Shown here piece after piece: positions 3,162 through 52,960 of a stretch of 64,000 bases of DNA (its first letter is position 1; the number at the start of each line of letters is the position of its first letter). The notes under the pieces were generated by a model that ran no database searches, was not told where the DNA came from, and saw only the letters and a list, made by a program, of their open reading frames with translations. Both the position numbers and the translations under genes were made by a program. The DNA is from an uncultured Planctomycetota bacterium (GTDB lineage: Bacteria; Planctomycetota; Planctomycetia; Gemmatales; Gemmataceae), in the NCBI GenBank assembly GCA_963849325.1, contig CAWKHF010000013.1:1-64000 (forward strand), given 5' to 3'.

Positions 3162-4314
3162 ATGCCGCTCTCTCCCGCCTCGCAGCGCCGTCCGCTTCTC
3201 GCCAAGGTGCGGCGCGTCTGGTCGCTGGTGCGCAAGGAAGCTCGCCAGATCCTCCGCGATCCCAGCAGCATCGCCATCGGCATCGTGCTGCCGGTGATCC
3301 TCATCCTGCTGTTCGGCTACGGGCTGTCGCTGGACGTGATGAACGTGCCGGTCGCCGTCGTCCTGGAGGATCCTTCGCCCGACGCGATGGAGCTGGCGGC
3401 CGGCTTCCAGCTCTCGCCGTACTTCGACGCGCAGCTCCTGACCTCGATGCCGCAGGCCCAGGAACTCATGCTCGCCCGGAAGGTGGACGGGATCGTCCGC
3501 ATCCGCCCGGACTTCGCCCGGCAGCTGGCCCTGGGCGATGTCGAGGTGCAGGTCCTCGTCCACGGCACCGACGCCAACCGCGCCCGCATCATCCAGGTCT
3601 ACGCCCAGGGAGCGATCGGCCAATGGGCGGCGCGGCGGGCCGCCGAAGGCCGCGCGTCCTCGGCCGGCCCCGTGTCGTTGCGCGATCAGCTCTGGTTCAA
3701 CAAAGCCAACGATAGCCACTACTTCCTGGTTCCCGGCCTGGTGGTGCTCGTCATGACGCTCATCGGCGCCATGCTCACGTCCCTGGTGATGGCCCGCGAG
3801 TGGGAGCGCGGCACGCTGGAGGCCCTGTTCGTCACGCCGGTTCGGGCCGACGAGATCCTGCTGGGCAAGACGGTCCCCTACTTCGTGCTGGGGATGATCG
3901 GGCTGGCGCTGTGCCTGCTGGCCGCCAAGTTCCTGTTCCACGTTCCGTTCCGCGGCTCGGTGACGGTGCTGGCCGGGGCGTCCATGCTCTACCTGCTGGT
4001 GGCGTTGGGCATCGGACTGCTGATCTCGTCGGCGACGCGAGAATCAATTCATGGCCAGCCAGTTGACGATGCTGGTCACGTTCCTGCCGGCATTCATGCT
4101 CTCGGGGTTCCTGTTTGATTTGCGCGGTATGCCGCCGGCCGTGCGGCTGCTCACGTACGTGCTGCCGGCGCGCTACTACGTCGCCCTGCTGCAAACGGTC
4201 TTCCTGGCCGGCGACGTCTGGAGCGTCATCGTTCCGAACGCGGCGGTGCTGGCCGGCATGGCCGTCGTGCTGCTTCTCCTGAGCCGAGGCGTAACCCGGA
4301 AGAGATTGGCCTGA
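3162..4314 (+). CDS. ABC-2 type permease (YbhS-like), frameshift near 4040
   Basis: 'KEARQILRDP', 'AREWERGTLEAL'. The C-terminus is in ORF 4051-4314. Confidence 0.85.
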
Positions 4315-4322
4315 GGTACACC

Positions 4323-5458
4323 ATGCTCGACGCGATCCTCCGTATCCTTGCCCTGACGCGCAAGGAACTGCTGGCCATTCTCAAGGACCCGCACAGCCGT
4401 TTCACCGTGTTTGTCCCGCCCATTCTCCAGTGCCTCATCTATGGCTACGTGGCGACCTACGACCTGAACGATGTGCCGTATGCCGCGCTCGATCAGGACC
4501 GCAGCGCCGCTTCGCGCGACCTGCTCGCCCGGTTGGACGGCTCCGGGATTTTCCGCCGCGTGGCCGACCTGCACCGGGCGGCGGAGGTGAAGTCTTCCAT
4601 CGACGAGCGCCGCGCTTTGCTCGTGATCCGGATCGACCAGGACTTCGAGAGGCGGCTGCTCCTGGGCCAGTCCGCCGACGTGCAAGCGATAGCCGACGGC
4701 CGAAACTCCAACACCGCCGGCACCGCGCTGGGCTATGTCGGTGCGATCGTCGAGACATTCAACGCCCGTTGCGCGCGGACCACCCTCTCTCGTCAACCTT
4801 CTCTCCCGCCGGGGGAGGGGTCCGGGTCACGACGCGGGCGTGGTTCAATCCGAACCTCGAAACCCGCTGGCACATGATCCCGAGCCTGATCGGCGTGCTG
4901 ACGCTGCTGGAGATGCTGCTGCTGACCGCCATGTCCGTCGCTCGGGAGCGCGAACAGGGGACGTTCGACCAGCTGCTGGTGACGCCTTTCCGCCCGGCCG
5001 AGATCATGGCCGGCAAGGCGCTGCCGTCGCTGCTGATCGGCATGGTCCAGGCGACGACCATTCTCCTGGTGGCCCAGTTTTGGTTCCGCATCCCGTTCGC
5101 CGGCTCCTTCGTGACCCTCTACGTGGGACTGAGCTTCTTCCTGCTGGCGGCGGTGGGGATCGGGCTGCTGGTCTCCTCCGTGGCGGCGACCATGCAGCAG
5201 GCGATGCTGTACTCGTTTATGCTGATGATGCCGTTCGCGCTCCTGTCGGGACTGGCCACTCCGCTCAGCAACATGCCCAAGTCCTTGCAGTACATCACGC
5301 TGGTCAACCCGCTGCGCTATGCGATCGAGATCGCGGAACGCACCTACCTGGAAGGAGCCGGACTGGACAGGCTATTGCCCGACCTGTGGCCCCTGGCCGT
5401 CATCGCGCTGGTGACGCTCTCGGCGGCCTCCTGGATGTTTCGCCACCGCCTCACCTGA
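4323..5458 (+). CDS. ABC-2 type permease (YbhR-like), frameshift near 4800
   Basis: 'RKELLAILKDP', 'DGRNSNTA', 'AREREQGTFDQLLVTP'. Confidence 0.85.
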
Positions 5459-10794: not shown

Positions 10795-11493
10795 ATGAAC
10801 ACGGCCCAGCAACTGCAAGACCTTCTTCAACTCCAGACGGCCCCGGTCGCGCTGGCCTTTCAGGACGCGCCACCGGCCCATCTTCCCCGCATGGCCGCGG
10901 CCGCGCCCTCCGGCTGCACGTTTTGGAAGCGTGCCGCCGCGGGGCAAGCCTTCTACACCGAAGTATCCGACCACTACAACTGCCCCATCGGGGCCTACAC
11001 CCACGGCGTCGATTTGCCGCCGGCGCAGGCGAAGGAGTTGCAAGACGTCGTGGAAACGATGATCCAGCTGGGCTATCTCCGGCCGGAAGAAGTTCCCGGC
11101 ATTCCACGCCGGCAGAGCAAGCTCGGCGTCGCTCTCTACGCGCCGCTGGCGACGGCGCCGTTCGAGCCGGAGGTCGTCCTCGTGTGCGGCAACGCCAAGC
11201 AGATCATGCTGCTGACGGAGGCGGCGCAAGCCGCCGGCGTCGGCGCCGAGGCGCCGCTGATGGGACGTCCCACCTGTGCGGCGGTCCCGACGGTCCTGCA
11301 AACCCAGCGCAGCGCGGCCAGTCTCGGCTGCATCGGCAACCGCGTTTACACCGAGATGGCCGATGACGAACTGTACTTCGCCCTGCCCGGCGGCCAACTC
11401 GGCCGAGTGGTGGAGAAGTTGGCAACGATCGTCAACGCGAACCGCGAGCTGGAGAAGTACCATCGTGCGAAACGAGCAACCCTAGGCGTTTGA
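10795..11493 (+). CDS. DUF169-family Cys-rich protein
   Basis: 'PVAL', 'GCTFW', 'CPIG', 'PTCAAVP', 'SLGCIGNR', 'DDEL' pattern. Confidence 0.75.
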   Translation: MNTAQQLQDLLQLQTAPVALAFQDAPPAHLPRMAAAAPSGCTFWKRAAAGQAFYTEVSDHYNCPIGAYTHGVDLPPAQAKELQDVVETMIQLGYLRPEEVPGIPRRQSKLGVALYAPLATAPFEPEVVLVCGNAKQIMLLTEAAQAAGVGAEAPLMGRPTCAAVPTVLQTQRSAASLGCIGNRVYTEMADDELYFALPGGQLGRVVEKLATIVNANRELEKYHRAKRATLGV

Positions 11494-11521
11494 CCCGATC
11501 CCCGGGAGAGGAGCCATTCTC

Positions 11522-12133
11522 ATGCAACACAGAATGTGGGCGGCCGCTCTGGGCCTGGTGTTTGGCGTCGCGCTGCCCGCCAGCGCCGAGATCATCAAGG
11601 GCCGCCTGGCCATCCGCGGCGCCGAAATGAGCTGATGAGGCGGGATGGCGTGTGACGCCATCGCACGTCAGTATGACGTGGACGCGGATTCGACGAAGCT
11701 CAATCGGCCCCAAGAACAAAAGGGCGGCTATCAGTTCGGCACCATCGAGTTTGTCGCCAAGAAGGGCAAGTCGATTGACCTGGACAAGATCCACGAGTCG
11801 ATCGCCGCCACGCGCCTGTCGGGCGGCACCAACATGCGCATGGATTACCTGGAAATCACGGCCAAAGGCGAGGTGATCGAGCGGGACAAGCAGCTGGTCT
11901 TGAAGGTGTCCGGCACGGGACAGGAATTCGTGCTGATCGAGGAACCCACGGCGAAGGACGCCCTGAAGCGTCTGCGCGAGGCCGTGGCGCGGGGGGACAA
12001 GGTGTCCACGGTCACGGGCCGCGTTCCCGGCTGGAACGGTCGTTTTCCCGATGTCCTGGCGGCGTGGGCGAAGACCCCCGACAGTCAGAAACGGAAGCTC
12101 GCGGTGGTGGATTTCAAGGTCGAGACGAAGTAA
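11522..12133 (+). CDS. Secreted HMA-like protein with tandem in-frame TGA-TGA (11633-11638); putative UU selenoprotein, 203 aa
   Basis: RBS GGAGAGGAG. The reading MQHRMWAAALGLVFGVALPASA-EIIKGRLAIRGAEMS-U-U-GGMACDAIA is continuous with ORF 11645-12133, and the signal peptide is present only upstream of the TGAs. Confidence 0.7.
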
Positions 12134-12157
12134 AGAACTGTCCCGCAATGACTTCCC

Positions 12158-12224
12158 CGTTTAGCCGCGACGCGCAGCGGAGCGCGGGCAGTGCCCGCGC
12201 TCCGCTGCGCGTCGCGGCTAAACG
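12158..12224. repeat. Perfect palindrome, family A copy 1 (33-bp arms)
   Basis: CGTTTAGCCGCGACGCGCAGCGGAGCGCGGGCA-G-TGCCCGCGCTCCGCTGCGCGTCGCGGCTAAACG. Confidence 0.9.
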
Positions 12225-12261
12225 AAGTTATTGCTGGACGCGTCCAATTAGAAAGACAACG

Positions 12262-12549
12262 ATGAGAGACCAGCTACGCAGCTTGTCCGGCGCTCTGCTC
12301 GCCGTGGCGGGCGCGGCGCCGACCTGAACGACGGCGGGGTTCCTGGCCCTGCTCGGGTTAGCGGGGAGCGCCACGGCCCGACTGGTGACCCACTGGCTTG
12401 CGCCGGTCCTGATCGGCCTGTCGGTGTTGTTCCTGCTGCGCTCGTTTTACATCCTGTACGTGCGGCGGCGCGGCACGCGGGTCAGCGCCGTCATTACCTG
12501 GATTTCGGCGGTCTTCGTTCTCGGCTTCTGGACCTGGCAGCTGATGTAG
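12262..12549 (+). CDS. MerT/MerF-like 3-TM membrane protein with in-frame TGA (12325-12327); putative selenoprotein, 95 aa
   Basis: MRDQLRSLSGALLAVAGAAPT-U-TTAGFLALLGLAGSATARLVTHWLAPVLIGLSVLFLLRSFYILYVRRRGTRVSAVITWISAVFVLGFWTWQLM. U lies at the end of TM1, where MerT/MerF have the Cys pair. Absent as a full-length ORF from the track. Confidence 0.75.
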
Positions 12550-12559
12550 AGGAGTTCCC

Positions 12560-13423
12560 GTGAACGCGCTTCGCATTGTGGGCTGCCTGTTGGCATCGTG
12601 CCTAATCGCCCAGGGATCCGCGCGCGGCCAGGACGCCGCCAAGGAGATCACCAACTCCATCGGGATGAAGCTGGTCCTGATTCCCGCGGGCAAGTTCGTC
12701 ATGGGTTCGCCGGCCGGCGAAGCCGAGCGCGACGCCGGTGAAGATCCGCACGAGGTCGTCCTCACGCGGCCGTTCTACCTCGGCGTCTACCCGGTCACGC
12801 AGGGCCAGTTCCAGAAAGTGATGGGCAAGAACCCGTCGTTCTTCCATCCGAAGAACGGCGGCAGTCTGGACCACCCGGCCGATCAGGTGCGGTGGGGCGA
12901 CGCCCGCGAGTTTTGCACGAAGCTCTCGGCGCTTGCCGAGGAGAAGAAGGCGGGCCGGACCTACCGCCTGCCGTCCGAGGCCGAATGGGAGTACGCCTGC
13001 CGCGCCGGCACCACCACGCCCTTCAACGTCGGCGACGCGCTCTCCTCCAAGCAGGCGAACTTCAACGGCAACTTCCCCTACGGCCGCGCTCCGAAAGGGT
13101 CTTTCTTGCGCCGGACGGTGAAGGTCGGCTCGTACCCGCCGAACGCCTGGGGCCTGTACGACATGCACGGCAACGTCTTGCAGTGGTGCAATGACTGGTA
13201 CGACCCGGATTACTACCAGAAGAGTCCCAGGGAAAATCCGAAGGGGCCGGACAAGGGCGTGGTTGCGACCGGCTTCCGGAGCGATTTCTTCGTGGTGGTC
13301 CGCGGCGGTTGCTGGCTGGACGAAGGTCGGGCCTGCCGTTCGGCCCGCCGTTTTCGGCTGCAGCAGAGTGAGCCTTATCGCTGGACCGGCTTTCGCGTGG
13401 CGTGCGACGTGGCCGGCAAGTGA
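12560..13423 (+). CDS. FGE-sulfatase (SUMF1) domain secreted protein
   Basis: 'NSIGMKLVLIPAGKFVMGS', 'RLPSEAEWEYACRAG', 'NAWGLYDMHGNV', 'GFRV'. RBS overlaps the upstream stop. Confidence 0.9.
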   Translation: MNALRIVGCLLASCLIAQGSARGQDAAKEITNSIGMKLVLIPAGKFVMGSPAGEAERDAGEDPHEVVLTRPFYLGVYPVTQGQFQKVMGKNPSFFHPKNGGSLDHPADQVRWGDAREFCTKLSALAEEKKAGRTYRLPSEAEWEYACRAGTTTPFNVGDALSSKQANFNGNFPYGRAPKGSFLRRTVKVGSYPPNAWGLYDMHGNVLQWCNDWYDPDYYQKSPRENPKGPDKGVVATGFRSDFFVVVRGGCWLDEGRACRSARRFRLQQSEPYRWTGFRVACDVAGK

Positions 13424-13444
13424 CAATCCGGCACATACCAGGAG

Positions 13445-13551
13445 AACCACGGATAACACGGATAAGAAAAGCAGAGAAAGCCGTATCCAGCCGGCACACC
13501 CTTGTTTCATCGGTATCATTAATATCCGCGTTATCCGTGTTATCCGTGGTT
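13445..13551. repeat. Inverted 9-mer tandem element, family B copy 1
   Basis: AACCACGGATAACACGGATAA ... TTATCCGTGTTATCCGTGGTT. Confidence 0.85.
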
Positions 13552-13573
13552 GAAGACCTTTGAGGGCGGTCCC

Positions 13574-13888
13574 ATGAAAAACGAGCTTCGCAGTGTGTCG
13601 GCCGCGATCATGAGCGTGCTTGCCGCGCTGCCGTGGTGAGCCATCACCTGAATGGTCCTTAATGGGACTTCAGCCCTGCTCGGGTTAGCGGGGAGCGTCA
13701 CAGCAACCGCCGTCAGCGGCTGGATTGCCCCAGTCCTGGTATGCGCTTCGATCGTCCTGATTGGACGGTCGTTCTACGTCATTTACGTGCGCGGCATTCG
13801 CACGCGAGCGACCGTCGTAATTGCATGGTCCGCTCTGGTGTTCATCATCGGCTTCTGGACGTGGCAGCTGACGATGGGCAGAGGGTGA
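13574..13888 (+). CDS. Second MerT/MerF-like membrane protein with two in-frame TGAs (13637, 13649; UxxxU)
   Basis: MKNELRSVSAAIMSVLAALPW-U-AIT-U-MVLNGTSALLGLAGS... is in frame with ORF 13652-13888. It is a clear paralog of 12262-12549 on both sides of the TGAs. Confidence 0.75.
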
Positions 13889-13918
13889 CCGCTTCCGCGT
13901 GGGTTTACGAGGTATTCT

Positions 13919-14302
13919 ATGTTCGGGCGAACGGGCGTGGCGTGGGTGCTGGCGGCCTCGGCGTTCTGGCTGTCCGCTTGCGGTCGGGTACACAAGCCGG
14001 AGAAGAGCTTACCGGCGGAGACGAAGGCGGAGTCTCCCGCCGCTGTGCAGCGGATCACGTTGCACGTGCCGGGCATGATCGACCGCCAGGGCATCACCTG
14101 ACTTACCTGAAAGAACGTCGTTCAAGAAGCCCTGTTAGGGCTTCCAGGCATCGAGAAGGTCGACGTCGATCTGAAAAAAGACCTGCTCCACGTTCGTTAC
14201 GATCCGGCCAAGGTGACACCAGAGCAGATGCTCCAGGAGATTGACAAGCTCGGGTACGAAGGGAAGATCCTTGCGGACGGCGACACCGCGTCCAAGCCTT
14301 GA
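13919..14302 (+). CDS. MerP/CopZ-like HMA lipoprotein with UxxU (TGA 14099, 14108), 127 aa
   Basis: Lipobox 'LSAC'. ITLHVPGM...GIT-U-LT-U-KNVVQEALLGLPGIEKVDVDLKKDLLHVRYDPAKVTPEQMLQEIDKLGYEG is a full HMA pattern only if both TGAs are read through. Confidence 0.85.
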
Positions 14303-14337
14303 GCGGTTCTCCCGCGACCAAGAGGGAGGTTTCGCCG

Positions 14338-14649
14338 ATGCGTGTACTGTTTCGATCCATCCTGGGAATGTTTATGGCCGACCGAGGTCCATCGGACAGC
14401 CCGCCGTCCCCCGCGGATGTGGTCGCCCACGTTCCGGGCCTGACCTGACCGCGCGGCTGACCGGATCGGGTGCGGAAAGCACTCGGTACTCTACCGTGGG
14501 TAGAGCAAGGCACGATTCAGATGAACTTCAAGGCCCGCGAGCTGAGGTTTTGCCTGAAAGACAAGAGCCAATGCGACGACGAGGCGCTCAAGAAGGCGCT
14601 CAAGGCCGAGGGGTTTCCGGACGTCCAGGTCCAAACCGGGCCGTCGTGA
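14338..14649 (+). CDS. HMA-domain protein with UxxxU (TGA 14446, 14458), 103 aa
   Basis: RBS GGGAGG. ...VVAHVPGLT-U-PRG-U-PDRVRKALGTLPWVEQGTIQMNFKARELRFCLKDKSQCDDEALKKALKAEGF. Absent from the ORF track. Confidence 0.8.
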
Positions 14650-14694
14650 CCACGTGGGGCCACGGTCCCGATACCGTAATCAAGGAGAGCATTG

Positions 14695-16077
14695 ATGTCC
14701 GCAATCCGCAGCGGCGCTTCCGTTGCACTCGGGCCGCAAGAACTGGGTCCGCCCGTGAACGTGGCGGAAGCCCCGGCCGCGACGCTCCGGGAGATCGTTC
14801 GCCGGCACGGGACGCCGACTTATGCCTACGATTTGCAGCGCATCCGCACGCAGGTGGACCGGCTGCGCGAATCCCTTCCGCGGCAGGTGGAGCTGTTCTA
14901 TTCGCTCAAGGCCAACCCCTCTTTAGGACTCTGCGGCTTCCTGGCGGACTGCGGCCTGGGAGCGGACGTCGCCTCGGCGGCCGAATTGGTGACGGCCCGC
15001 GAAGCGGGATTTGCCGCGCAGCGTCTCCTGGTGACCGGACCGGATCGTTCGTCCGCCTTGCTGGCCGAGCTGCGTTCCGTCCCCGAGGCGATCCTGTCCA
15101 TTGATTCGCTCAGCGAATTGCAGCAACTCGCCGGCCTGGGGCTGTCCCACCGCGCGCTGCTGCGTCTGCGGCCAGACTTCCCTTGCCAGGCGGTCTGCAC
15201 GGCCGGCCCGGACTCTCGTTTCGGCCTCCTTTTCGACGAGCTGGAACGCTGCCGGGAACACATCGGCCCCGGCGGCATCCGCGTCATCGGCTTCCATATC
15301 TTCGCGGGCTCGCAGGTGCTCGATGCCGCCGCCGTGGTCCAGCACCTGCGCGGCGCCCTGGACGAGTCGCTCCGCGCCGCCGAAGTGCTCGGCCTGGCTC
15401 CGGAGGTCATCGACCTGGGCGGCGGCTTCGGCGTCCCCTACGCGCCGGGAGAGCCTGAGCTGGATCTGGACCCCATCCGCGCAGCGCTGCACGCCATCGT
15501 CCAGGGGGCGCCGCAGAGCCGTATCTTCATGGAGCTGGGCCGGTACTTGGTGGCGCAGTCCGGCTGGTATCTGACCTCGGTGCTTGCGCTGCAACGGCAG
15601 GCCGGCCGCAAGGCGGTCGTGGTGGACGGCGGCACTCACCAACGAGGCGACATGTGCGGCATCGGTCTGCGCCACAAGGCGACCCCGGTATCTCTCGCGG
15701 ATCGGCCCGGTCCCGTCAGCCCGACGGATGTTCTCGGCTGCCTGAGCCATCCGGGGGACGTGTTGGCCGAGGCTTATCCGCTGCCGCCGCTGGCACCGGG
15801 CGACGTCGTGGCCTTTCCCAACGCCGGGGCTTACGGGCTGTGCGCCTCTCCCTGGTCCTTCAACGGACATCCCATCGCCGCCGAGGTGGTTTTCGATGGG
15901 GAGCGAATCGAAACCATCCGTTCGCGCCCGCCGACCCGTGCCGTCCTGGAGGGTCAGGTCCGCCTTCGCCCGGCGGAACCTTCGATCGCAAACGGCGAAG
16001 CGGCGCTGGAGCATTATACCGAGCTGAAAACCGTGACTGTTCAGCTGAGCCATACCGCCGCCGCACCCAAGGGTTGA
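14695..16077 (+). CDS. PLP-dependent fold-type III decarboxylase (LysA/ODC family)
   Basis: 'HGTPTYAYD', 'YSLKANP', 'DVASAAE', 'SRFG', 'GFHIFAGSQ', 'DLGGGFG', 'ELGRYLV', 'AGAYG'. Confidence 0.88.
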   Translation: MSAIRSGASVALGPQELGPPVNVAEAPAATLREIVRRHGTPTYAYDLQRIRTQVDRLRESLPRQVELFYSLKANPSLGLCGFLADCGLGADVASAAELVTAREAGFAAQRLLVTGPDRSSALLAELRSVPEAILSIDSLSELQQLAGLGLSHRALLRLRPDFPCQAVCTAGPDSRFGLLFDELERCREHIGPGGIRVIGFHIFAGSQVLDAAAVVQHLRGALDESLRAAEVLGLAPEVIDLGGGFGVPYAPGEPELDLDPIRAALHAIVQGAPQSRIFMELGRYLVAQSGWYLTSVLALQRQAGRKAVVVDGGTHQRGDMCGIGLRHKATPVSLADRPGPVSPTDVLGCLSHPGDVLAEAYPLPPLAPGDVVAFPNAGAYGLCASPWSFNGHPIAAEVVFDGERIETIRSRPPTRAVLEGQVRLRPAEPSIANGEAALEHYTELKTVTVQLSHTAAAPKG

Positions 16078-37953: not shown

Positions 37954-38006
37954 AGCATAAGGTGTAACAAATTGCCAGGATTCACTCATCGGAACAAGGC
38001 TGCGCC

Positions 38007-38786
38007 ATGCTGGTGGAGGAACGTCGTCAACGAGTGCTGGATCTGGTTAGTGAACGCGGGTTCATTGCGCTCACGGATCTGGCGCAGACGATCGACGTCT
38101 CCGAATCGACGCTGCGACGCGATCTCGATTACTGGCACAAGCAGGGGTTGCTGCGGCGGACGCACGGCGGAGCCATGTTCGTCGGCGACGCGGCGACGCT
38201 GCCGGCCCTGGAGGAGCGCTCGGCCAGCCAGCTCGACGAGAAGCGGACCATCGCCCGTGCCGCGGTCGCCCGCATCCAGGACGGCGAGACCATCCTGCTC
38301 GACGGCGGCACGACGACGCTGGAAGTCGCCCGGCTGCTGGTCGGCCGCTCGCTGCAGATCGTCACCAACAGTCTGCCCATCGCCAGCCTGTTCGCCTCCA
38401 GCCGCGAGACCGATCTGGTCATCCTCGGCGGCTACGTCTATCCCAAGACCGGCGTCGCCCTCGGGCCGCTGACGGTGCGCATGATGGAAGACATCCACGT
38501 CCATCAACTCGTCATGAGCGTCGGCGGCATCACCGGCAAGGGGCTGTTCAACAGCAACCTGCTGCTGGTCGAGACGGAACGGCAGATGATGCGCTGCGCC
38601 GACGAGGTGGTGGTCGTGGCCGACCACACCAAGATCGGCCGGCAGGCGCTGGCCTTTCTGTGCGACCTGGCCGCCATCGACACGCTGATCGTGGACGCCG
38701 ACCTGAGCCCGGCGCAGCGCGACATGCTCGATCAGACGGACGTCCGGCTGCTCGTGGCCGGCGAAACGGAGAACAACCACTCATGA
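38007..38786 (+). CDS. DeoR/GlpR-family regulator
   Basis: 'VSESTLRRDL', 'RTHGGA', 'LDGGTT', 'VADHTK'. Confidence 0.93.
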   Translation: MLVEERRQRVLDLVSERGFIALTDLAQTIDVSESTLRRDLDYWHKQGLLRRTHGGAMFVGDAATLPALEERSASQLDEKRTIARAAVARIQDGETILLDGGTTTLEVARLLVGRSLQIVTNSLPIASLFASSRETDLVILGGYVYPKTGVALGPLTVRMMEDIHVHQLVMSVGGITGKGLFNSNLLLVETERQMMRCADEVVVVADHTKIGRQALAFLCDLAAIDTLIVDADLSPAQRDMLDQTDVRLLVAGETENNHS

Positions 38787-39476
38787 GCACGGCGACCCTG
38801 GATCGTGCCCTGATCGAACGGCTGGTGCGTGCGGCCCTGGTGGAGCAGACCGGCAACGGTCACGCCGCCAACGGCAAGGCCGCCCCCGCGAGGCGGACGG
38901 CGCCGAAGCTGGTCGTCAACGTCTCGGCCCGGCACTGCCACGTCACGCAGGAAGACCTCGAACGCCTCTTCGGCAAGGGCCACAAGCTGACGCCGTACAA
39001 GGCGCTCTACCAGGATGGCTTCTTCGCCGCCGAGGAGACGGTGACGATGATCGGGCCGCGGCACCGCATGATTACGGGCCTGCGCATCCTCGGTCCGTGC
39101 CGCGATCACAGCCAGGTCGAGCTGGCCTTCACCGACGCCATCACGCTCGGCCTGGACATTCCCGTCCGCAAGAGCGGCGATCACCGCGATTCGCCCGGCG
39201 CCTACCTGCTCGGCCCGGCCGGCATGATCCAGCCTGGAGCGCGGCGTCATCCGCCACGAGCGCCACGTCCACATGGGGCCGGCGGACGCGGCCTACTACG
39301 GCGTCAAGGACGGCGATCGGCTCAACCTGCGGGTCGAGAGCGATTGCGCGGCGGTGCTGGAGGGATTGCTGGTGCGGCTGGCGCCGGCGTCGAAGCTGGA
39401 AGTGCATCTGGACACGGACGAGGGCAACGCCTGTCACGTGAGCCGGGCGACTCATTTTGAATTGTTCAAACCGTAG
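38783..39476 (+). CDS. pduL: PduL-type phosphate propanoyltransferase, frameshift near 39230
   Basis: 'VSARHCH', 'RILGPCR', 'RHVHM', 'HLDTDEGNA'. Confidence 0.85.
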
Positions 39477-39516
39477 CCGCTTGCGGCTTAGCGTGTCTTC
39501 GCTAACCGCAAGCGGC
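39474..39516. repeat. Short REP-like palindrome (half copies at 43571-43590 and about 62732-62748)
   Basis: TAGCCGCTTGCGGCTTAGCG-TGTCTT-CGCTAACCGCAAGCGGC. Confidence 0.65.
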
Positions 39517-39536
39517 CCTGAACCTGGAGACCCAAC

Positions 39537-39855
39537 ATGGCTAGTTCCCACATGGAAGCCCTTGGCATGATCGAGACCAAGGGACTGGTGCCGCTGGTCG
39601 AGGCCAGCGACGCCATGCTGAAGGCCGCCAACGTGACGTTGATCGGCTGGCAGAAGATCGGCAGCGGCATGGTGACGGCGCTGGTGGTCGGCGACGTGGC
39701 GGCGGTCAAGGCCGCCATCGACGCCGGCAGCCGCCGCGGCGGCGCGCGTCGGCGAGGTCGTCGGCGTGCAGGTCATTCCCCGTCCGCACGAAGACCTCGG
39801 CGCCGTCCTGCCGCTGGCCGGCAAGAAGGCGGCGGCCGCGCCCGCCGGTGTCTAA
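39537..39855 (+). CDS. BMC hexamer shell protein, frameshift near 39730
   Basis: '[10 protein letters not shown]', 'DAMLKAANV', 'GDVAAVKAA', 'VIPRPH'. Confidence 0.9.
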
Positions 39856-39891
39856 CCTCAAACCGAACACTCTTTTTCCGAGGAAATTCCT

Positions 39892-40194
39892 ATGGCGATC
39901 TCCAACAACGCCGGCCGCAACGGCAACGGCGAAGCCCTGGGCCTGATCGAGACCAAGGGCCTGATTGCGACCATCGCGGCCACCGATGCCATGTGCAAGG
40001 CGGCCAACATCACCCTGGCCGGCCAGGTGCAGATCGGCAACGCTTTCGTGACGACGTTCGTTCGCGGCGACGTCGGCTCGGTGCGTGCGGCCGTCGATGC
40101 CGGCGCCCAGGCCGCCAGCGCCAACGGCGAGCTGGTCAGCGCCCACGTCATCCCGCGTCCCGAGCGCGACGTGCTGGAGACGTTTTTGAAGTAA
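39892..40194 (+). CDS. BMC hexamer shell protein
   Basis: 'ALGLIETKG', '[11 protein letters not shown]', 'HVIPRP'. Confidence 0.93.
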
Positions 40195-40311
40195 AGGCGT
40201 CCAGGCTCACGGGCCGGCCCGTGAGCCGTTCGCAATCCGTCGGCTTCTGAAACGAGGGAGCATGGCCATGGCGCGTGGTGACGATTTGCCGCCGAGCGGA
40301 CGACTCACGGG

Positions 40312-40507
40312 ATGGATGGCTTCTTCGCCAACACCCACATCGTCCTGCTCATCCTTTTCGAGCTTCTGTTGCAGCTACATCGGCCTCATCCTGGGGATTG
40401 TGGGTCTGGTCACCTGCAAGGACCCCAAGGCCAAGCAGAACGCGACCATTACGACGATCCTGTCCGCGGTCTTCGCCGTCCTGGGCACCGTCGGAATATT
40501 ACGCTGA
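40312..40507 (+). CDS. Small membrane protein, probable frameshift near 40360
   Basis: MDGFFANTHIVLLILF joined to FCCSYIGLILGIVGLVTCKDPKAKQNATITTILSAVFAVLGTVGILR. Confidence 0.5.
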
Positions 40508-40539
40508 GGCGGTAAGAAAGCCCGAGGAGAGGCTCCGTC

Positions 40540-41730
40540 GTGAAAATCCTGGTCGCTAACCTGGGCAGCACCAGCTTCAAGTATCGGCTGTTCGACATGG
40601 CCGACGAGCGGGTGCTGGCGCGCGGCGGCGTCGAGCGCATCGGCTCGCCGCAGTCGCGCTGCTTCGTCGAGGCCGGCGGCCAGCGCGAGGAGGCCGACGG
40701 TCGAGGCGCGCGACCACGCCGCGGCGGTGCGGCTCTGCCTGCAGCAGTTGGCCGATCCGAAACGGCGCTGTTTGCGAGATCCGTCGGAGCTGGCGGCCAT
40801 CGGCTTCAAGGCGGTCCACGCCCAGGGAGTCAGCGGCGTGCAGCGCGTCGACGAGCGCGTGCTGGCGGCGATGGAGGCGTACGCCGACGTCGCCCCGGCC
40901 CACAATCCGCCCTACGTCCCGGCCATGCGTCTGTTGGCGAAGGAGTTGCCGCAAATTCCGCTGGTGGCCGCGTTCGAGACGGGCTTTCACCAGACCATCC
41001 CGCCGGCCGAGCGCTCCTACGCCGTGCCGCTGGAGTGGGCCGAGAAGCACGGCATCCGCAAGCACGGCTTCCACGGCGCCAGCCATCGCTACATCGCCGG
41101 CCGCACAGCCCAGCTGCTTGAACAAGCCCGAGGCGAAGATCATCTCGTGTCACCTGGGCGGCAGCTCGTCGCTGTGCGCCATCCAGGACGGCCAATCGCG
41201 GGCCAGCAGCCTGGGCATGAGTCCGCAGAGCGGTCTGCCGCACAACAACCGCGTCGGCGACTTCGATCTGTTCGCCCTGCCCGCCCTGATGCGGGCCACC
41301 GGCAAGACGCTGGAGCAACTGCTCGACGATCTGGCCAATCGCTCCGGTCTGCTCGGGCTTAGTGGCGGCCGCAACGACCTGCGCGACATCGAGGCGGCGG
41401 CCGAGTCCGGCGATGCCGACGCCCGGCTGGCCCTCGACGTGTTCGTCGCCTCGGTGCGGCACTACCTGGGGGCGTATCTGCTGCTCCTGGACGGGGCCGA
41501 CGCCATCGTCTTCACCGGCGGCATCGGCGAGAACTCGTCGCGCATGCGTCAGGACGTGTCTGCGCCGACCTCGACTGGTTCGGCATTCGCCTGGATCGCC
41601 GGAAGAACGACAGCGGCCAAGGGCGAGATGGCGATTCATGCCGACGATAGCCGGGTGCAGATTGTGGATCATGCCGACCAACGAGGAGCTGGTCGTCGCC
41701 CGGCAGGCGAAGGCGCTGCTGGAGGGGTGA
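40540..41730 (+). CDS. ackA: Acetate/propionate kinase, multiply frameshifted
   Basis: 'NLGSTSFKY', 'APAHNP', 'GFHGASH', 'CHLGGSSS', 'FTGGIGENS', 'TNEELVVA'. Confidence 0.88.
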
Positions 41731-41733
41731 ATC

Positions 41734-42054
41734 ATGTTCCTGGCCCGAGTCACCGGCGTGGTGGTGGCGACGCAGAAGGTCGCCTCGATGACCGGCCACA
41801 AGCTGCTGACCGTCGAGCCGCTGCGCGTCGAGCCGCAGACCCGCGATCGCCTGGTCGGCACCGGCCGCAGCTTCGTCGTGGTCGATACGGTCGGCGCCGG
41901 CCAGGACGAAATGGTGCTGATCGTGCAGGGCTCCAGCGCCCGCCTGACGCCGGAGACCGAGAAACTGCCGGTGGACGCCACCATCATCGGCATCGTGGAC
42001 ACCGTCAACGTCGAGAACCGAACGATCTTCTCGGCAAAAATTAACCACGGATAA
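41734..42054 (+). CDS. EutN/CcmL BMC pentamer
   Basis: 'MFLARVTG', 'DTVGAG', 'GSSAR', '[11 protein letters not shown]'. Confidence 0.92.
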
Positions 42055-42119
42055 CACGGATAACACGATAAAGAAATAAATATTCTTTTTTATCCGTGTT
42101 ATCCGTGTTATCCGTGGTT
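42043..42119. repeat. Inverted 9-mer tandem element, family B copy 2
   Basis: AACCACGGATAACACGGATAACACG ... ATCCGTGTTATCCGTGTTATCCGTGGTT. Confidence 0.85.
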
Positions 42120-42142
42120 CAATCTTCTTCGGGATGTAAACC

Positions 42143-43573
42143 ATGCAAGTGACCGACGATCTGATCCGCGGCGTGGTCCAGCAAGTGCTGTCGCAGATGC
42201 GCAACGGCCAACCGCCCGCCGCGCCCGGCCGCAACGGCCACGCGGCGCAGCGCGGCGTCTTCGCCGACGTCGAGACGCGCCGTCGCCGCCGCTCGCGCGG
42301 CCCAGAAGGAGTTCGAAGCGCGCGGCCTGGAAGACCGCCGCAAGGCCGTCGCCTGCATCCGCAAGATTTGCAGCGAGCAGGCCGAGACAGCTCGGCCGCG
42401 AGGAACTGGAAGAGACGAAGATCGGCCGGCTCGTCCACAAGATCGAGAAGCTGAAGGTCATCGCCGACCGCATCCCCGGCGTCGAGTTCCTGCGGACCGA
42501 CGCCTTCAGCGGCGAGAACGGCGTGTCGCTGCAGGAATACGCCCCCTTCGGCGTCATCGGCGTCATCACGCCGGTGACGCACTCGCTGCCGACGCTGGCC
42601 TGCAACGCCATCAACATGCTGGCCGCCGGCAACGCCCTGGTCTGCAACCCGCACCCCGTCGGGCGCGCGCATCGCCTGCAAGGGCGTGCAGCTGTTCAAC
42701 CAAGCGATCTACGAGGCCATCGGCATCGACAACCTGCATCACCATCATCGAGCAAGCCGACGCTGGAGTCGGCCCAGGCGATCTTCGACCATCGCGACGT
42801 CCGCATGCTGTGCGTCACCGGCGGCCCCGCCGTCGGCCGCGCCGCCCTGCGCAGTCCGAAGCGCGCCATCGTCGCCGGGCCCGGCAATCCGCCGGTCGTC
42901 GTCGATGAGACGGCCGACCTCGACAACGCCGCCCGCTCCATCGTCGCCGGCGGCGGCTACGACAACAACCTGCTGTGCATCGGCGAGAAGGAAGTCTTCG
43001 CCGTCGCCGCCATCTTCGACGAGTTGATGCGAGGCGATGACGCGCTACAAGGCCGTGCGCCTCGACGCCGGCCAGATCGAGGCGCTGACGAAGGCCGCCT
43101 TCGTCAAGGACGACAAGGGCCACGAGATGGTCAACAAGGACCTCATCGGCCAGGACGCCGCCGTGCTGGCCGAGCACGCCGGCGTCAAGGTGCCGGCCGA
43201 CACGGAACTGCTGTTCGGCGAGACGGACGAATCGCATCCGTTCGTCGATCACGAGCAGATGATGCCGTTCGTGCCGTTCGTGCGCGTGCCGGACGTGGAC
43301 ACGGCCATCGCGCTGGCCAAGAAGTACGAACACGGTTTCAAGCATACGAGCCTCATCCACTCGCGCAACGTGGAGACGATCACGCGCATGGGCCGCGAGA
43401 TGGACACGACGCTGTTCGTGCAGAATGGCCCGAGCATGGCCGGCCTGGGCAGCGGCGGCGAGGGCTATCTGAGCTTCAGCATCGCCACGCCGACCGGCGA
43501 GGGCGTGACGACGCCGCTGACGTTCACGCGGCAGCGGCGCTCGACGACGGTGCGGGCATTGCGGGTCCTCTAG
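42143..43573 (+). CDS. BMC acylating aldehyde dehydrogenase (EutE/PduP-like), multiply frameshifted
   Basis: '[12 protein letters not shown]', 'VTGG', 'AGPGNPP', '[10 protein letters not shown]', 'EQMMP', 'TPTGEG'. Confidence 0.88.
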
Positions 43574-43601
43574 CCGCTTGCGGCTTAGCGGGAGGTGTCG
43601 C

Positions 43602-43856
43602 ATGCAAATCGGTCGTGTCGTCGGTCATGCGGTTTCGACGGTGAAGCATCCCAGCTTGCAGGGCTGGAAACTGCTGCTCGTGCAACTGCTTGGCACCGAC
43701 GGCAAACCCGACGGCGAGCCGATCCTGGCCATCGATCGTCTCGGCGCGGGTGCCGGCGATCGCGTGGTTGTATGCAACGACGGGGCTGAGGCGCGGGCGA
43801 TGGTCGGGGCGAAGAACTCGCCGGTGCGCTGGTTCGTGATGGGCCTGGCGGATTGA
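43602..43856 (+). CDS. EutN/CcmL BMC pentamer
   Basis: 'MQIGRVVG', 'KH...KLL', 'DRLGAGAGD'. Confidence 0.88.
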
Positions 43857-44310
43857 TGAACGGCAACGGACAAGCTGGGTCTGGCTGGGGTTATGCCGTC
43901 GAGGGCCGGCCCTCGACGATGCTGCAAATCGCCTTGCACGCCGCGCATCGCAAGGAGCATCCGCCGCAGACGCTGCCGGAGTGCAACGGCGAGACGTGCG
44001 ACTGGGTGCGGCGCGTGGCGGAGTGTCTGCGCAGTGGTCGCTGCCGCACGGCGTTGTTGTTCTGCCGCGATGCCTGCCTGGCGTGCTGCGTCGCCAACAA
44101 GGTGCCGGGCGTGCGGGCGGCCGCGGTAGGACGGTGGGACAAGCGGCGCGAGCGCTGGAGCAGCTAGGGGCGAACCTGCTCGTCGTGGAGATGGCGGATC
44201 GCACTTACTTCGAGTGCAAGGAAATGCTGCGGCTCTGCGGCGATGGCGCCGCCTGCCCGCCCGGTGTGGCGTGCATCCTGGAGGAGCTGGACGGCCATGC
44301 GCATCGCTGA
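43856..44310 (+). CDS. RpiB/LacA-like hypothetical BMC-locus protein, frameshifted
   Basis: 'CVANKVPGVRAA', 'LGANLL'. Confidence 0.6.
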
Positions 44311-44587
44311 GGTGATCGGCAACGTGACGCTGTCCCGCGTGCATCCGAGCCTGACCGGCGCGCGCTGGTCATCGGCGTGCCGTTCAGCCTGAAGGCGCTG
44401 CAGACTGGACGGGCTCGCCGATGGCGAGGACGTGGTGATCTACGACAACCTCGGCGCCGGCGTCGGCGCCCGCATCGGCTTCAGCGAGGGCGGCGAGGCG
44501 GCGGCGCCGTTCCACCCGGAGAAGAAGCCCGTCGATGCCTACTGTGCGTGCATTCTGGATACGGTGAGGATCAACGACGGAGAGTGA
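44297..44587 (+). CDS. EutN/CcmL BMC pentamer, frameshifted
   Basis: MRIAEVIGNVTLSRVHP ... YDNLGAGVG ... PVDAYCACILD. Confidence 0.8.
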
Positions 44588-44590
44588 ACC

Positions 44591-45453
44591 ATGAACGAAT
44601 ACAAGCTGAAAGAACAGATGTGCGAGATCGGCCGGCGGCTGTACGCCAAGGGCTTCGCGGCCGCCAACGACGGCAACATCACCGTCCGCCTCAACGAGCG
44701 CGAAGTCCTGTGCACGCCGACGATGGTGTCCAAGGGCTTCTTGAAGCCGGAAGACATCTGCAAAGTGGACATACGAGGGCAAGCAGCTGGCCGGCACCAC
44801 GCAAGCGCACCAGCGAGGTGCTGCTTGCACCTGGCCATCTACAAGCAGCGGCCCGACGTGATGGCGGCCGTCCACTGCCATCCGCCGCACGCCACCGCCT
44901 TCGCCGTCGCCCACGAGCCGATCCCCAAGTGCATCCTGCCCGAGGTCGAGGTCTTCCTCGGCGAGGTGCCCATCGCCGTCTACGAGACGCCCGGCGGCCA
45001 GAAGTTCGCCGACACCGTCGTGCCCTACGTCAAGGACTGCAACACCATCATCCTGGCCAACCACGGCACCGTGACGTTCGGGCCGGACCTGGAGAAGGCG
45101 TACTGGAACACGGAGATCATCGACGCCTATTGCCGAATCCTGATCCTCGCCAAGCAGCTGGGCCGTATCAATTACTTCGACGAGCAGAAGACGCGCGAGC
45201 TGCTGGAGCTGAAAAAGCGGCTGGGCTACGACGACGTCCGCTTTCACGACGACAGACTGCCCCATCTGCGGCGACAGCAGCTTTGACGAGTCCTACACTG
45301 ATTTCGTGCCCCGGCCGCATGCCTTCCGGCGCGACGCCTGTTCGTTGCAGGCATCGCCGCAACGGCCAGGCCGGCGGCGGCGTGGACATGGACGAATTGG
45401 TGCGGACGATCACCGATCAGGTCATGGCCGCCCTTAACGGGGTGGCCGTTTGA
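44591..45453 (+). CDS. Class II aldolase (FucA/RhaD-like), frameshifted, with C-terminal encapsulation-like peptide
   Basis: 'DGNITVR', 'HCHPPHAT', 'LANHG'; tail 'DMDELVRTITDQVMAAL'. Confidence 0.87.
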
Positions 45454-45861: not shown

Positions 45862-46089
45862 ATGGCCGGTGGAAGCATTGAAGAGCGTCTCGCGGCTGTG
45901 GAAGCGGAGTTGCTTCGCTTGAAACAGATGGTCGAACCGGAGAAGGCAGATTCGTGGGTGGAAGAATGGGCCGGGGCCTTTCTGAACGATCCATATTTTG
46001 AGAAGGCCATGAAGTACGGACGCCAGTACCGAGAATCGCTGCGACCGAAAAAAACGGCCAAACGAAAACGATCTCCTGGTGATTCTTGA
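45862..46089 (+). CDS. Small hypothetical protein, antitoxin-like, 75 aa
   Basis: MAGGSIEERLAAVEAELLRLK...WVEEWAGAFLNDPYFEKAMKYGRQYRES. Lower GC than its neighbours. Confidence 0.55.
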   Translation: MAGGSIEERLAAVEAELLRLKQMVEPEKADSWVEEWAGAFLNDPYFEKAMKYGRQYRESLRPKKTAKRKRSPGDS

Positions 46090-46126
46090 TATGGATCTCC
46101 AGGGCCAACATTCAACGAGTGAAACC

Positions 46127-47140
46127 ATGAAAGTCAGCATCATCGGCGGCGGCGGACTGGTCGGCAGCATGGCCGCCTACGCCTTGCAGTGCGGCGGCAT
46201 CGTCAATCATCTTTGCCTCATCGACGCCAACGCCGACGCGGCCAAGGGCCACGCCCTGGAGCTGCTGCACGGCGCCGCCTTGACCAGCGACCAGCGTCTC
46301 AGCGCCGGCACGATGGAAGACGTGGCGACGAGCAACATCGTCGTCATCACGGCCGGCCTGCGCCGCAAGCCCGACGAGAGCCGGCTCGACCTCATCAACC
46401 GCAACGTCGATCTGTTCCTGGCGCTGCTCGACCAGGTCAAGGCGGCCGGCCTGAAGGACAGACGCCTACCTCGTCGTCGTCAGCAACCCGGTGGACGTGC
46501 TGACGTACCTGGCGGTGCAGCGCAGCGGCCTGCCGTGGCAGCGCGTCCTCGGCCTGGGCACGCAGCTGGACACGGCCCGTTTCCGCGGCTATCTCGCCAA
46601 GCGCCTCGAAGTGCCGGCCACGCAGGTGCAGGCGATGATCCTCGGCGAGCACGGCGACAGCATGGTGCCGATCTGGTCCAGCGCCACCGTCGCCGGCCTG
46701 CCGCTGGAGCAATGGCCGGGCTTCACGCCGGCTGTGCAGAGCGAGGTGTTCGAGGACACGAAGACGGCCGGAGCGCAGCTCATCAAGCTCAAGGGCGGCT
46801 CCGGCTTCGCGCGTCGGCTTGTCGATCCGCGAAGTCGTCGAATCGCTGGCCCGCGACAGCCGGCGCGTGCTGCCGGTCAGCACGCTTGCAGCAGGGGTTG
46901 TACGGCATCCGCGACGTGTGCCTGTCGGTGCCGACCGTGGTCGGCTGCGGCGGCGTCCGCCAGCAGATCGAGTTGCCGCTGACGCCGAAGGAGCGGCTGG
47001 CGATGCAGCAATCGGCGCGCGTGCTGCGCGAGACGATCGATCAGGTCGAGGCGCGGATCGGCAAGGTGAGGGCCAACCACGCTGCAACGCCCGCCCCGCG
47101 CGGCAACGCTATCCCGCGCTCGGCGTGGCAAAGAACATAA
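46127..47140 (+). CDS. L-lactate/malate dehydrogenase family, frameshifted
   Basis: 'IIGGGGLVG', 'ITAGLRRKPDESRLDL', 'NPVD', 'LDTARF', 'GEHGDS'. Confidence 0.88.
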   Translation: MKVSIIGGGGLVGSMAAYALQCGGIVNHLCLIDANADAAKGHALELLHGAALTSDQRLSAGTMEDVATSNIVVITAGLRRKPDESRLDLINRNVDLFLALLDQVKAAGLKDRRLPRRRQQPGGRADVPGGAAQRPAVAARPRPGHAAGHGPFPRLSRQAPRSAGHAGAGDDPRRARRQHGADLVQRHRRRPAAGAMAGLHAGCAERGVRGHEDGRSAAHQAQGRLRLRASACRSAKSSNRWPATAGACCRSARLQQGLYGIRDVCLSVPTVVGCGGVRQQIELPLTPKERLAMQQSARVLRETIDQVEARIGKVRANHAATPAPRGNAIPRSAWQRT

Positions 47141-47160: not shown

Positions 47161-47253
47161 AACCACGGATAACACGGATGAACACGGATGAAGAACAAAA
47201 CACAATGAATTCTATTTTTGTCTTATCCGTGTTCATCCGTGTTATCCGTGGTT
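47161..47253. repeat. Inverted 9-mer tandem element, family B copy 3
   Basis: AACCACGGATAACACGGATGAACACGGAT ... ATCCGTGTTCATCCGTGTTATCCGTGGTT. Confidence 0.85.
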
Positions 47254-50436: not shown

Positions 50437-50592
50437 AAGAATTTCACCACGGAACACACGGAATACACGGAAAAAGACAAAAATAAAAGGATCGGAACGA
50501 TCAGGGAGAGCGAGGTGTGCATTTGTTATGCATAACCTATCCTCCTTTTTGTCTTTTTCCGTGTATTCCGTGTGTTCCGTGGTGAAATTCTT
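50437..50592. repeat. Inverted 9-mer tandem element, family B variant, with 47-bp perfect arms
   Basis: AAGAATTTCACCACGGAACACACGGAATACACGGAAAAAGACAAAAA (50437-50483) and its exact reverse complement (50546-50592). Confidence 0.88.
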
Positions 50593-52893: not shown

Positions 52894-52960
52894 GGTTTAG
52901 GGTTTAGGGTGAAGAAGGGGAGCCTGGCCGATGTCCCGAACCCTCCTACCCTAAACCCTA
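52894..52960. repeat. Second inverted TTTAGGG/CCCTAAA element
   Basis: GGTTTAGGGTTTAGGGTGAAGAA ... ACCCTAAACCCTA. Confidence 0.8.

Follow-up and report, generated by a model that had tools for sequence, protein, structure and literature searches.

We analyzed a stretch of 64,000 nucleotides from an uncultured Planctomycetota bacterium of the family Gemmataceae (assembly GCA_963849325.1, contig CAWKHF010000013.1, positions 1 to 64,000 of the forward strand), here called the window, with a focus on HMA1, a gene in which two in-frame TGA codons fall within the sequence of a heavy-metal-binding domain. The segment from 11522 to 14649 on the plus strand is a selenoprotein island of five TGA-bearing genes that together carry nine selenocysteine (Sec) codons. 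HMA1 is the fourth of these genes and lies between merT_B, encoding a MerT-like membrane protein, and HMA2, encoding a MerP-like protein; both flanking genes are double-Sec genes as well. The features of HMA1 are given below, where L001 denotes an orthologous locus in another Gemmataceae genome and SECIS a selenocysteine insertion sequence.

13919 to 14302, plus strand: HMA1, encoding a lipoprotein precursor of 127 residues whose HMA domain has a GITULTU (UxxU) site, from sequence, translation and Pfam
13919 to 13981, plus strand: predicted lipoprotein signal peptide with lipobox LSA/C21 (codon 13979-13981), read from the sequence
14099 to 14101, plus strand: UGA 1, Sec61, in place of the first Cys of GMTCxxC, from alignments, the TGA in L001 and the ends of relatives
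14108 to 14110, plus strand: UGA 2, Sec64, in place of the second Cys of GMTCxxC, from alignments and the TGA in L001
14113 to 14123, plus strand: 4-bp hairpin GAAC-GTC-GTTC with a GUC loop, -0.1 kcal/mol
14126 to 14144, plus strand: SECIS candidate GAAGCCCT-GTT-AGGGCTTC, an 8-bp stem without mismatches, capped by a GUU triloop, -11.6 kcal/mol

The gene comprises 127 codons from the ATG at 13919 to a terminal TGA at 14300-14302 and, with the two internal TGAs read as U, encodes ...HVPGMIDRQGITULTUKNVVQEALLGLPGIEKVDVDL...HVRYDPAKVTPEQMLQEIDKLGYEG... A first-pass annotation made from the letters alone had proposed a MerP/CopZ-like lipoprotein in which UxxU replaces the GMTCxxC metal site, and had suggested a Pfam search on the translation through the TGAs. 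We performed this search and obtained a match to the HMA family (PF00403; E 6.1e-14, 52.6 bits, gathering cutoff 24.8) that aligns residues 57-114 with profile positions 5-62 of 62 and spans both TGAs. Among solved HMA domains, 33 PDB sequences match HMA1 at E of 1e-3 or below, and the printed alignments pair both U residues with both cysteines of GMTCxxC. Similarly, in tblastn comparisons with four unrelated loci encoding Cys-type HMA proteins (L002-L005), Cys stands opposite both U residues in 8/8 domain alignments. The proposed replacement of both metal ligands is thus borne out.

The N-terminus of the protein (MFGRTGVAWVLAASAFWLSAC) has a positively charged start and a hydrophobic stretch followed by LSA/C, and an LSAC lipobox is common to all 11 aligned sequences of lipoprotein type (the window, L001 and P0007-P0015). 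The lipobox is followed by a linker rich in Pro, Glu, Lys and Ser, the length of which differs among HMA1 relatives. The lipoprotein assignment is our reading of the N-terminal sequence rather than the output of a signal-peptide predictor. Together with the Pfam match, it supports the earlier description of the predicted product as an HMA (MerP/CopZ-like) lipoprotein.

A scan of genome contigs gave five loci among 153 pattern matches, of which L001 is orthologous and L002-L005 encode the ordinary Cys-type HMA proteins mentioned above. L001 belongs to a Gemmataceae metagenome-assembled genome and is collinear with window positions 13622-15993 at 88.7% nucleotide identity. Its HMA1 orthologue is 80% identical at the amino acid level and retains both TGAs, while the codons between them differ (CTT ACC in the window, CTG TAC in L001). 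All six TGAs of merT_B, HMA1 and HMA2 are kept in L001. The concern that the TGAs might be sequencing substitutions, which the first-pass annotation had named as grounds for rejecting its proposal, was therefore not borne out, since both TGAs of HMA1 recur in an independent assembly.

Relatives in a protein collection point the same way. All nine relatives of the N-terminal half of HMA1 end at ...GMIDRQGIT, and three relatives in which a MerT-like protein is fused to an HMA domain (P0125, P0127 and P0128) also end at ...GIT, so that 12/12 stop before the first TGA; these are protein records only, and their shared end gives the position of the stop and not the identity of the stop codon. The MerT-like protein has 124 relatives, and all nine that were fetched begin at the Met after the second TGA; HMA2 has 27, and all 14 fetched begin after the second TGA. 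In public annotation these 9 HMA1, 124 MerT-like and 27 HMA2 relatives are all labelled as truncated hypothetical proteins, and under current annotation models these Gemmataceae selenoproteins are missed. A word-indexed protein search turned up no close relative of HMA1, merT_B or HMA2 that is full-length and has Cys (9 hits among 57 candidates for HMA1). One HMA2 relative, P0162, runs on in a shifted frame, like the window's own other-frame reading of this region.

Downstream of the second TGA in the three genes, differences between the window and L001 number 14, 11 and 30 at codon positions 1, 2 and 3, each of 203 (Fisher p 5.6e-4). This bias is that of translated sequence, and the DNA downstream of the TGAs therefore evolves as coding. 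A general reassignment of TGA can be excluded, because TGA also serves as the ordinary stop codon of merT_B, HMA1 and HMA2, and because the HMA2 relative P0139 ends exactly where the window copy does.

To assess whether the TGAs are accompanied by decoding signals, we used the bacterial SECIS (bSECIS) model given in the Fig. 2 legend of PMC13188914, which specifies a loop of 3-9 nt, a stem of 4-16 bp, a folding energy at or below -7.5 kcal/mol, G in loop position 1 or 2, and a spacing of 16-37 nt between UGA and loop; our hairpin script accepted perfect stems only. The hairpin at 14126-14144 has its loop 32 nt after UGA 1 and 23 nt after UGA 2, fits the model for both UGAs of HMA1, and is 100% identical in L001. 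Among 18230 control positions in the window, only 2.7% have a hairpin that conforms to the model and is at least this stable (at or below -11.6 kcal/mol). The two hairpins described in the first-pass annotation, and the rare TTA codon within the second (14135-14137), are present at 14113-14123 and 14126-14144. Its suggestion that these two stacked hairpins serve one UGA each does not hold for HMA1: 14113-14123 fails as an independent SECIS on energy (-0.1 kcal/mol) and on spacing (loop 15 nt from UGA 1 and 6 nt from UGA 2), and 14126-14144 alone fits both UGAs.

The remaining features of the island and the gene directly downstream are listed below (AF2, AlphaFold2; TM, transmembrane segment; PLP, pyridoxal 5'-phosphate).

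11522 to 12133, plus strand: gene for the UU protein, a predicted 203-residue secreted protein with adjacent TGAs (TGATGA 11633-11638), ...AEMSUUGGMAC..., from translation and AF2
11644 to 11662, plus strand: UU gene hairpin, 8 bp, loop GUG, from computed folding
11664 to 11680, plus strand: UU gene hairpin, 7 bp, loop GUA, from computed folding
12262 to 12549, plus strand: merT_A, a MerT-like paralogue of 95 residues with one Sec, ...AAPTUTTAGF..., TGA 12325-12327, from blastn and tblastx
12347 to 12366, plus strand: merT_A hairpin CCCUGCU-CGGGUU-AGCGGGG, loop 26 nt after the UGA, from folding
12560 to 13423, plus strand: secreted protein with an FGE-sulfatase domain, no Sec, PF03781 E 2e-49
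13574 to 13888, plus strand: merT_B, a 104-residue MerT-like protein with three TMs, ...LPWUAITUMV... (UxxxU), TGAs 13637-13639 and 13649-13651, from translation and hydropathy
13654 to 13669, plus strand: merT_B hairpin, loop UAAU, from folding
13674 to 13693, plus strand: merT_B hairpin, loop CGGGUU, TTA inside, from folding
14338 to 14649, plus strand: HMA2, a 103-residue MerP-like protein, ...GLTUPRGUPDRV... (UxxxU), TGAs 14446-14448 and 14458-14460, stop TGA 14647-14649
14465 to 14487, plus strand: HMA2 hairpin, 9 bp, loop GGAAA, from folding
14489 to 14505, plus strand: HMA2 hairpin, 7 bp, loop GUG, from folding
14695 to 16077, plus strand: PLP-dependent decarboxylase of ornithine/diaminopimelate/arginine type, scoring under the lysA and TIGR03099 cutoffs

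An exhaustive search of representatives with merT_B gave 52 matches at E of 1e-3 or below. In ten aligned full-length distant homologues the site of UxxxU is occupied by Cys-Cys in nine, mostly as LPWCC, and by LW in P0193; only among these distant representatives did we find MerT-like proteins with Cys. In the alignment of MerT-like proteins, 11 of 12 members match the family model merT_RC607 and three match a MerT/CopZ selenoprotein model. The paralogue merT_A was detected through a second blastn match of L001 in the window; it matches merT_RC607 at E 7.7e-7 and shares 49/95 residues with merT_B and, in the hairpin, 8/8 codons including the TTA. HMA2 scores under the cutoffs of both HMA (E 0.0018) and MerP (E 2.2e-5) profiles. 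Its AF2 model, from a 22-row alignment and with a mean predicted local distance difference test (pLDDT) score of 65, has the beta-alpha-beta-beta-alpha-beta order of the HMA fold, and the best structural matches in the PDB are MerP 1osd_A (E 9.7e-5, TM-score 0.80) and then 1afi.

In the UU gene the signal peptide lies 5' of the TGAs and the protein body 3' of them, and read-through is therefore needed for a sensible gene. The UU protein matched no family and no PDB fold at E of 1e-3 or below. Its single-sequence AF2 model (mean pLDDT 70) has a beta-alpha-beta-beta-alpha-beta N-terminal domain with UU in the beta1-alpha1 loop, and points to a pair of ferredoxin-like domains, the UU lying in a metal loop like that of HMA proteins. 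A lead from Atlas points to Planctomycetota hypothetical proteins of 153-161 residues.

The decarboxylase gene lies directly 3' of the selenoprotein genes in both genomes (1089-2405 in L001); the block from merT_B to this gene is shared with L001, and beyond it the genomes differ. The FGE gene begins 10 nt after merT_A and is wedged between the two MerT-like genes; its product has RGGCW…ACRSA in place of what we take to be the usual RGGSW…RSA-type motif. A dispersed intergenic palindromic repeat of CACGGATAA units occurs at 13448-13548, 42046-42116, 47164-47250 and 50457-50572, with 11 matches at three or fewer mismatches and none expected by chance; the copy 5' of merT_B can fold into an extended stem (z -4.1). 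The repeat is probably a REP-like (repetitive extragenic palindromic) element between transcription units. The idea that the 20-nt inverted repeat 5' of merT_B acts as a specific operator was rejected, as the same palindrome stands at three other intergenic sites.

Across merT_B, HMA1 and HMA2, five of six UGAs are followed by a hairpin that conforms to the bSECIS model, compared with 11% of the 18230 control positions and 11% of 1438 TGA triplets, and no conforming hairpin lies downstream of the stop codons of HMA1 and HMA2. In merT_B the hairpin at 13674-13693 fits UGA 2, with its loop 29 nt away. In HMA2, 14465-14487 fits only UGA 1 (25 nt) and 14489-14505 only UGA 2 (35 nt); three L001 substitutions in the former preserve the structure (U-G to C-G and U-A to U-G in the pairing, the third in the loop). 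TTA accounts for 12 of 1046 Leu codons (1.1%) in the Pfam-supported open reading frames (ORFs) of the window and is found inside the hairpins of HMA1, merT_B and merT_A; with the merT paralogues counted as one case, two of six Leu codons are TTA (p about 0.002). A search of the whole window with Rfam gave no match at gathering score. A match to SECIS_3 in the FGE gene, from an Rfam search of 11400-14800 at E up to 5, was dismissed as chance level (20.8 versus 63 bits).

HMA1 thus shows, as judged from its sequence, the hallmarks of a bacterial selenoprotein: UGAs opposite Cys, a bSECIS hairpin and a TGA-bearing homologue in L001. The closest catalogued type is NF041115, the 'UxxU_metal_bind' metal-binding (seleno)protein, which like HMA1 is an HMA-type domain with both ligand cysteines replaced by Sec. 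It is the best NCBIfam model for HMA1 (E 2e-17; residues 57-119 align with model positions 11-73 of 74), and tables in PMC9312934 and PMC13188914 list a 'putative mercuric reductase / metal-binding protein' with UxxU and two Sec. HMA1 differs in being a 127-residue precursor in which a lipoprotein signal and some 25-45 residues of linker precede the domain, compared with the 74 positions of the model, and in lying in an operon with MerT-like selenoproteins; this comparison is to the profile model and not to member sequences. HMA1 is a real selenoprotein gene of this catalogued type in a new, lineage-specific form: a lipoprotein, below the model's threshold, in Planctomycetota.

The HMA1 site also corresponds to those of familiar thiolate proteins. 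MerP (TIGR02052; PDB 1afi, 1osd) is likewise an HMA protein found beside a MerT-type membrane protein, with its ligands in the beta1-alpha1 loop, but it is soluble where HMA1 would be lipid-anchored and uses Cys where HMA1 has Sec; in addition, HMA1 has a MerT-like neighbour but no merA or merR in the window or among the flanking ORFs of L001. A selenoprotein row for 'Mercuric transport protein MerP' appears in the Global Ocean Sampling survey (PMC2398784), and rows for 'putative mercuric transport protein' in PMC2398784 and PMC1976440. The GMTCxxC motif of CopZ and of the N-terminal domains of Cu(I) P-type ATPases (ATP7B, CopA) matches the HMA1 site in position, and the closest solved sequences are ATP7B (7xuk_A, six repeats, E 2.4e-35), Bacillus subtilis CopA (1p6t, E 2e-16) and CopZ (about 1e-7). 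Unlike the predicted HMA1 product, these proteins are cytoplasmic and carry Cys, and no Cu-ATPase gene lies near HMA1.

On the membrane side, MerT selenoproteins, MerTP and NF045683 share with the island a MerT-like protein of three TMs, with Sec at the site of the Cys pair in TM1, and some relatives are fused to an HMA domain. The motif in the island is UxxxU, with two Sec and AIT inserted between them, or a single U, whereas the listed MerT forms are C/SxxU with one Sec (a table in PMC13188914) or CU (MerT-related selenoproteins in bioRxiv 10.1101/2022.07.06.499078). The main text of PMC13188914 makes no mention of UxxxU, lipoproteins or planctomycetes. NF045683 is MerT/CopZ fusion-like, with MerT and HMA in one chain, whereas the window has separate genes; P0125, P0127 and P0128 gave no NF045683 match, in searches that had only their truncated forms. 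For decoding, the nearest parallel is the UXXU-type Group 4 [NiFeSe] hydrogenases described in PMC13582414, which also have UGAs at a pair of metal-ligand Cys positions three codons apart, pose the same decoding problem and have a SECIS G in loop position 1 or 2. They are unrelated proteins for which that source proposes one SECIS for both UGAs, whereas several island genes show two hairpins.

A functional link between HMA1 and its neighbors is suggested by gene order and by fusion. The intergenic gaps are 30 nt between merT_B and HMA1 and 35 nt between HMA1 and HMA2, with a Shine-Dalgarno-like site before each gene, and in P0125, P0127 and P0128 the MerT-like protein is fused in frame after TM3 to the HMA domain, the same architecture as in known MerTP and MerT/CopZ proteins. 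Hydropathy and a positively charged TM2-TM3 loop would place the C-terminus of the MerT-like protein, and with it the fused HMA domain, outside the cytoplasm, consistent with the HMA protein being a lipoprotein where it is not fused. Taken together, we put at about 70% the probability that HMA1 is a genuine selenoprotein in which the UGAs are decoded as Sec via the hairpin, and that its product is an exported HMA protein that binds soft metals with a MerT-like partner.

On this reading, the hairpin at 14126-14144 would recruit SelB and Sec-tRNA to decode both UGAs, and the product would be exported and lipid-anchored at Cys21, with the HMA domain held in the periplasm on a flexible linker. The domain would hold a soft metal ion between the selenolates of Sec61 and Sec64, where MerP and CopZ use two thiolates; the first-pass annotation had inferred that selenols at both positions should give very high affinity for Hg(II), Ag(I) or Cu(I). 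The ion could then pass to the Sec pair (UxxxU) in TM1 of the MerT-like protein, at the position of the MerT Cys-Cys pair, with HMA2 (UxxxU) as a possible second donor or acceptor. Each transfer would be a ligand exchange between one selenolate pair and the next. Between like ligands such a step would be roughly level in energy, whereas a dithiolate could take the ion from a diselenolate only at an energetic cost, and we infer that all partners carry Sec because the exchange steps need to be level. The metal may be Hg(II), by likeness to MerT/MerP, or Cu(I)/Ag(I), by likeness to CopZ.

The role of Sec as a metal ligand outside redox enzymes is poorly understood. In this island a whole putative transport chain has changed from thiolates to selenolates together, which makes the question of why Sec is used for metal trafficking testable. 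In addition, the four natural double-UGA genes, with 0, 2, 3 and 3 intervening codons, provide material on how bacteria decode neighboring UGAs.

Sec is used elsewhere in the window too. A thioredoxin-like gene on the minus strand (52958-54577; Thioredoxin_8 and NHL repeat) has CUxxC in DFWTLCUINC with its TGA at 54307-54305, and the organism therefore uses Sec there as well; the script found no perfect-stem SECIS in this gene, and its fold z-score is +0.39. Two more in-frame TGAs with coding-like flanks in a screen of third-position GC content, at 23894 and 44585 on the plus strand, are probably adjacent genes in the same frame. For Gemmata obscuriglobus a full set of Sec-insertion genes is reported in PMC4807772.

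Several results weigh against the reading of HMA1 as a Sec-containing metal-binding partner of a MerT-like protein. Two selenols in an oxidizing periplasm could form a diselenide. Profile scores are low throughout: HMA1 reaches 63.1 bits on NF041115, under the curated cutoff of 95 and only slightly above the generic CopZ models (54 bits), and falls under the cutoffs of the CopZ models NF033794 (54.5 versus 95 bits) and NF033795 (54.3 versus 91). Its likeness to MerP in sequence is modest (E 4.4e-5 in the PDB; 40.9 bits on TIGR02052, cutoff 92.55), and on the MerT side the MerT-like proteins reach only 27-29 bits on merT_RC607 against a cutoff of 130 (merT_B, 27 bits, E 4.4e-6), with HMA1 at 21.5 versus 375 on NF045683. 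The signal of HMA2 is lipoprotein-type in L001 (717-800, …FTFGC), but the window copy (14338-14400) lacks 15 nt and the lipobox Cys, and from its sequence the export of this copy is doubtful.

The decoding evidence has gaps of its own. UGA 1 of merT_B does not conform to the bSECIS model, the nearest conforming loop being 41 nt off, and a conforming hairpin also follows the stop codon of merT_B, which illustrates the false-positive rate of the model. The segments downstream of UGAs have modest fold z-scores (-0.7 to -2.1), sites near the hairpins show no significant deficit of synonymous differences from L001 (6/62 versus 41/256, p 0.14), and the comparison of hairpins covers a single DNA relative, L001. 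In the 64-kb window we found no tRNA gene, and no selA, selB or selD among the ORFs scanned. Likewise, none of the 76 ORFs searched across the window and the flank of L001 (5+37+24+10) encodes MerA, MerR or a P-type ATPase, and no cytoplasmic acceptor or reductase is visible among them.

We considered whether the TGAs could be sequencing errors or pseudogene stops, leaving only a 60-residue lipopeptide, as might be supposed from the annotation of relatives as short hypothetical proteins and from other window genes that look frame-shifted. This is very improbable: the two TGAs stand exactly on ligand positions, six occur in three adjacent genes and are kept while neighboring codons change, the sequence beyond them evolves as coding, and the same-residue truncation recurs in 12/12 relatives from several sources. 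A subtler possibility keeps the gene and fold and has one or both UGAs read as Cys by a SelC-like tRNA-ReC through the same SECIS and SelB, giving CxxC, UxxC or CxxU. PMC13582414 raises Cys decoding by tRNA-ReC for UXXU motifs and reports tRNA-ReC-like genes in about 56% of UXXU-hydrogenase genomes compared with about 2.3% of other Sec-type genomes, and the window has no tRNA gene that would decide which tRNA decodes the UGAs. We regard this as quite unlikely, as no close relative found here has changed TGA to TGC or TGT, a free change if the product were Cys, while six TGAs are kept in L001, 12/12 HMA1 relatives stop at the first, and nine such codons are kept across five genes. It seems similarly improbable that the UxxU and UxxxU pairs are redox centers (selenol/diselenide) of a trans-membrane reductant or chalcogen relay rather than metal ligands. 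Most prokaryotic selenoproteins catalogued in PMC9312934 and PMC13188914 are redox proteins with UxxC or CxxU, the partners here would be periplasmic, and a redoxin-type selenoprotein gene lies elsewhere in the window. The fold, however, is HMA and not thioredoxin-like, the U residues occupy metal-ligand positions of solved Cu(I) and Hg(II) proteins, the membrane partner belongs to the MerT family, and the MerT-like/HMA fusions mirror MerTP metal transporters.

A further question is whether each of two close UGAs needs its own SelB-SECIS complex, with tandem SECIS elements in double-UGA genes. Two non-overlapping hairpins (at least 6 bp, at or below -5 kcal/mol) occur within 62 nt after UGA 1 in three of four double-UGA genes (UU, merT_B and HMA2), compared with 3.1% of 25520 control positions, and by strict SECIS criteria in two of four compared with 0.17%; neither of the two single-UGA genes has more than one hairpin, and the two hairpins of HMA2 each fit a different UGA (25 nt from UGA 1, 35 nt from UGA 2). 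HMA1 itself does not follow this pattern, its first hairpin being negligible (-0.1 kcal/mol) and its second fitting both UGAs, and the first merT_B hairpin has no G in its loop. Furthermore, the pattern was noticed post hoc in one genome and one near-identical relative, and PMC13582414 favors a single SECIS for UXXU. Tandem SECIS elements appeared, among the literature matches listed, only as eukaryotic 3' UTR cases, which does not prove their absence from bacteria. We consider one hairpin per UGA an unlikely arrangement, and we hold only tentatively, as an idea more apt to fail than to stand, that the island is a selenolate-only metal relay from a tethered HMA domain to the MerT-like protein with one SECIS hairpin per UGA.

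Elsewhere in the window, two genes on the plus strand have a domain split over overlapping ORFs in different frames, a lactate/malate dehydrogenase (46013-47137 and 46455-46979) and an ABC-2 permease (4119-4874 and 4295-5455); these may be frameshifts, whether from assembly errors or in pseudogenes. A bacterial microcompartment (BMC) cluster at 37968-45286, also on the plus strand, encodes a DeoR regulator, PTAC, a BMC shell protein, two EutN/CcmL proteins, acetate kinase and a class II aldolase.

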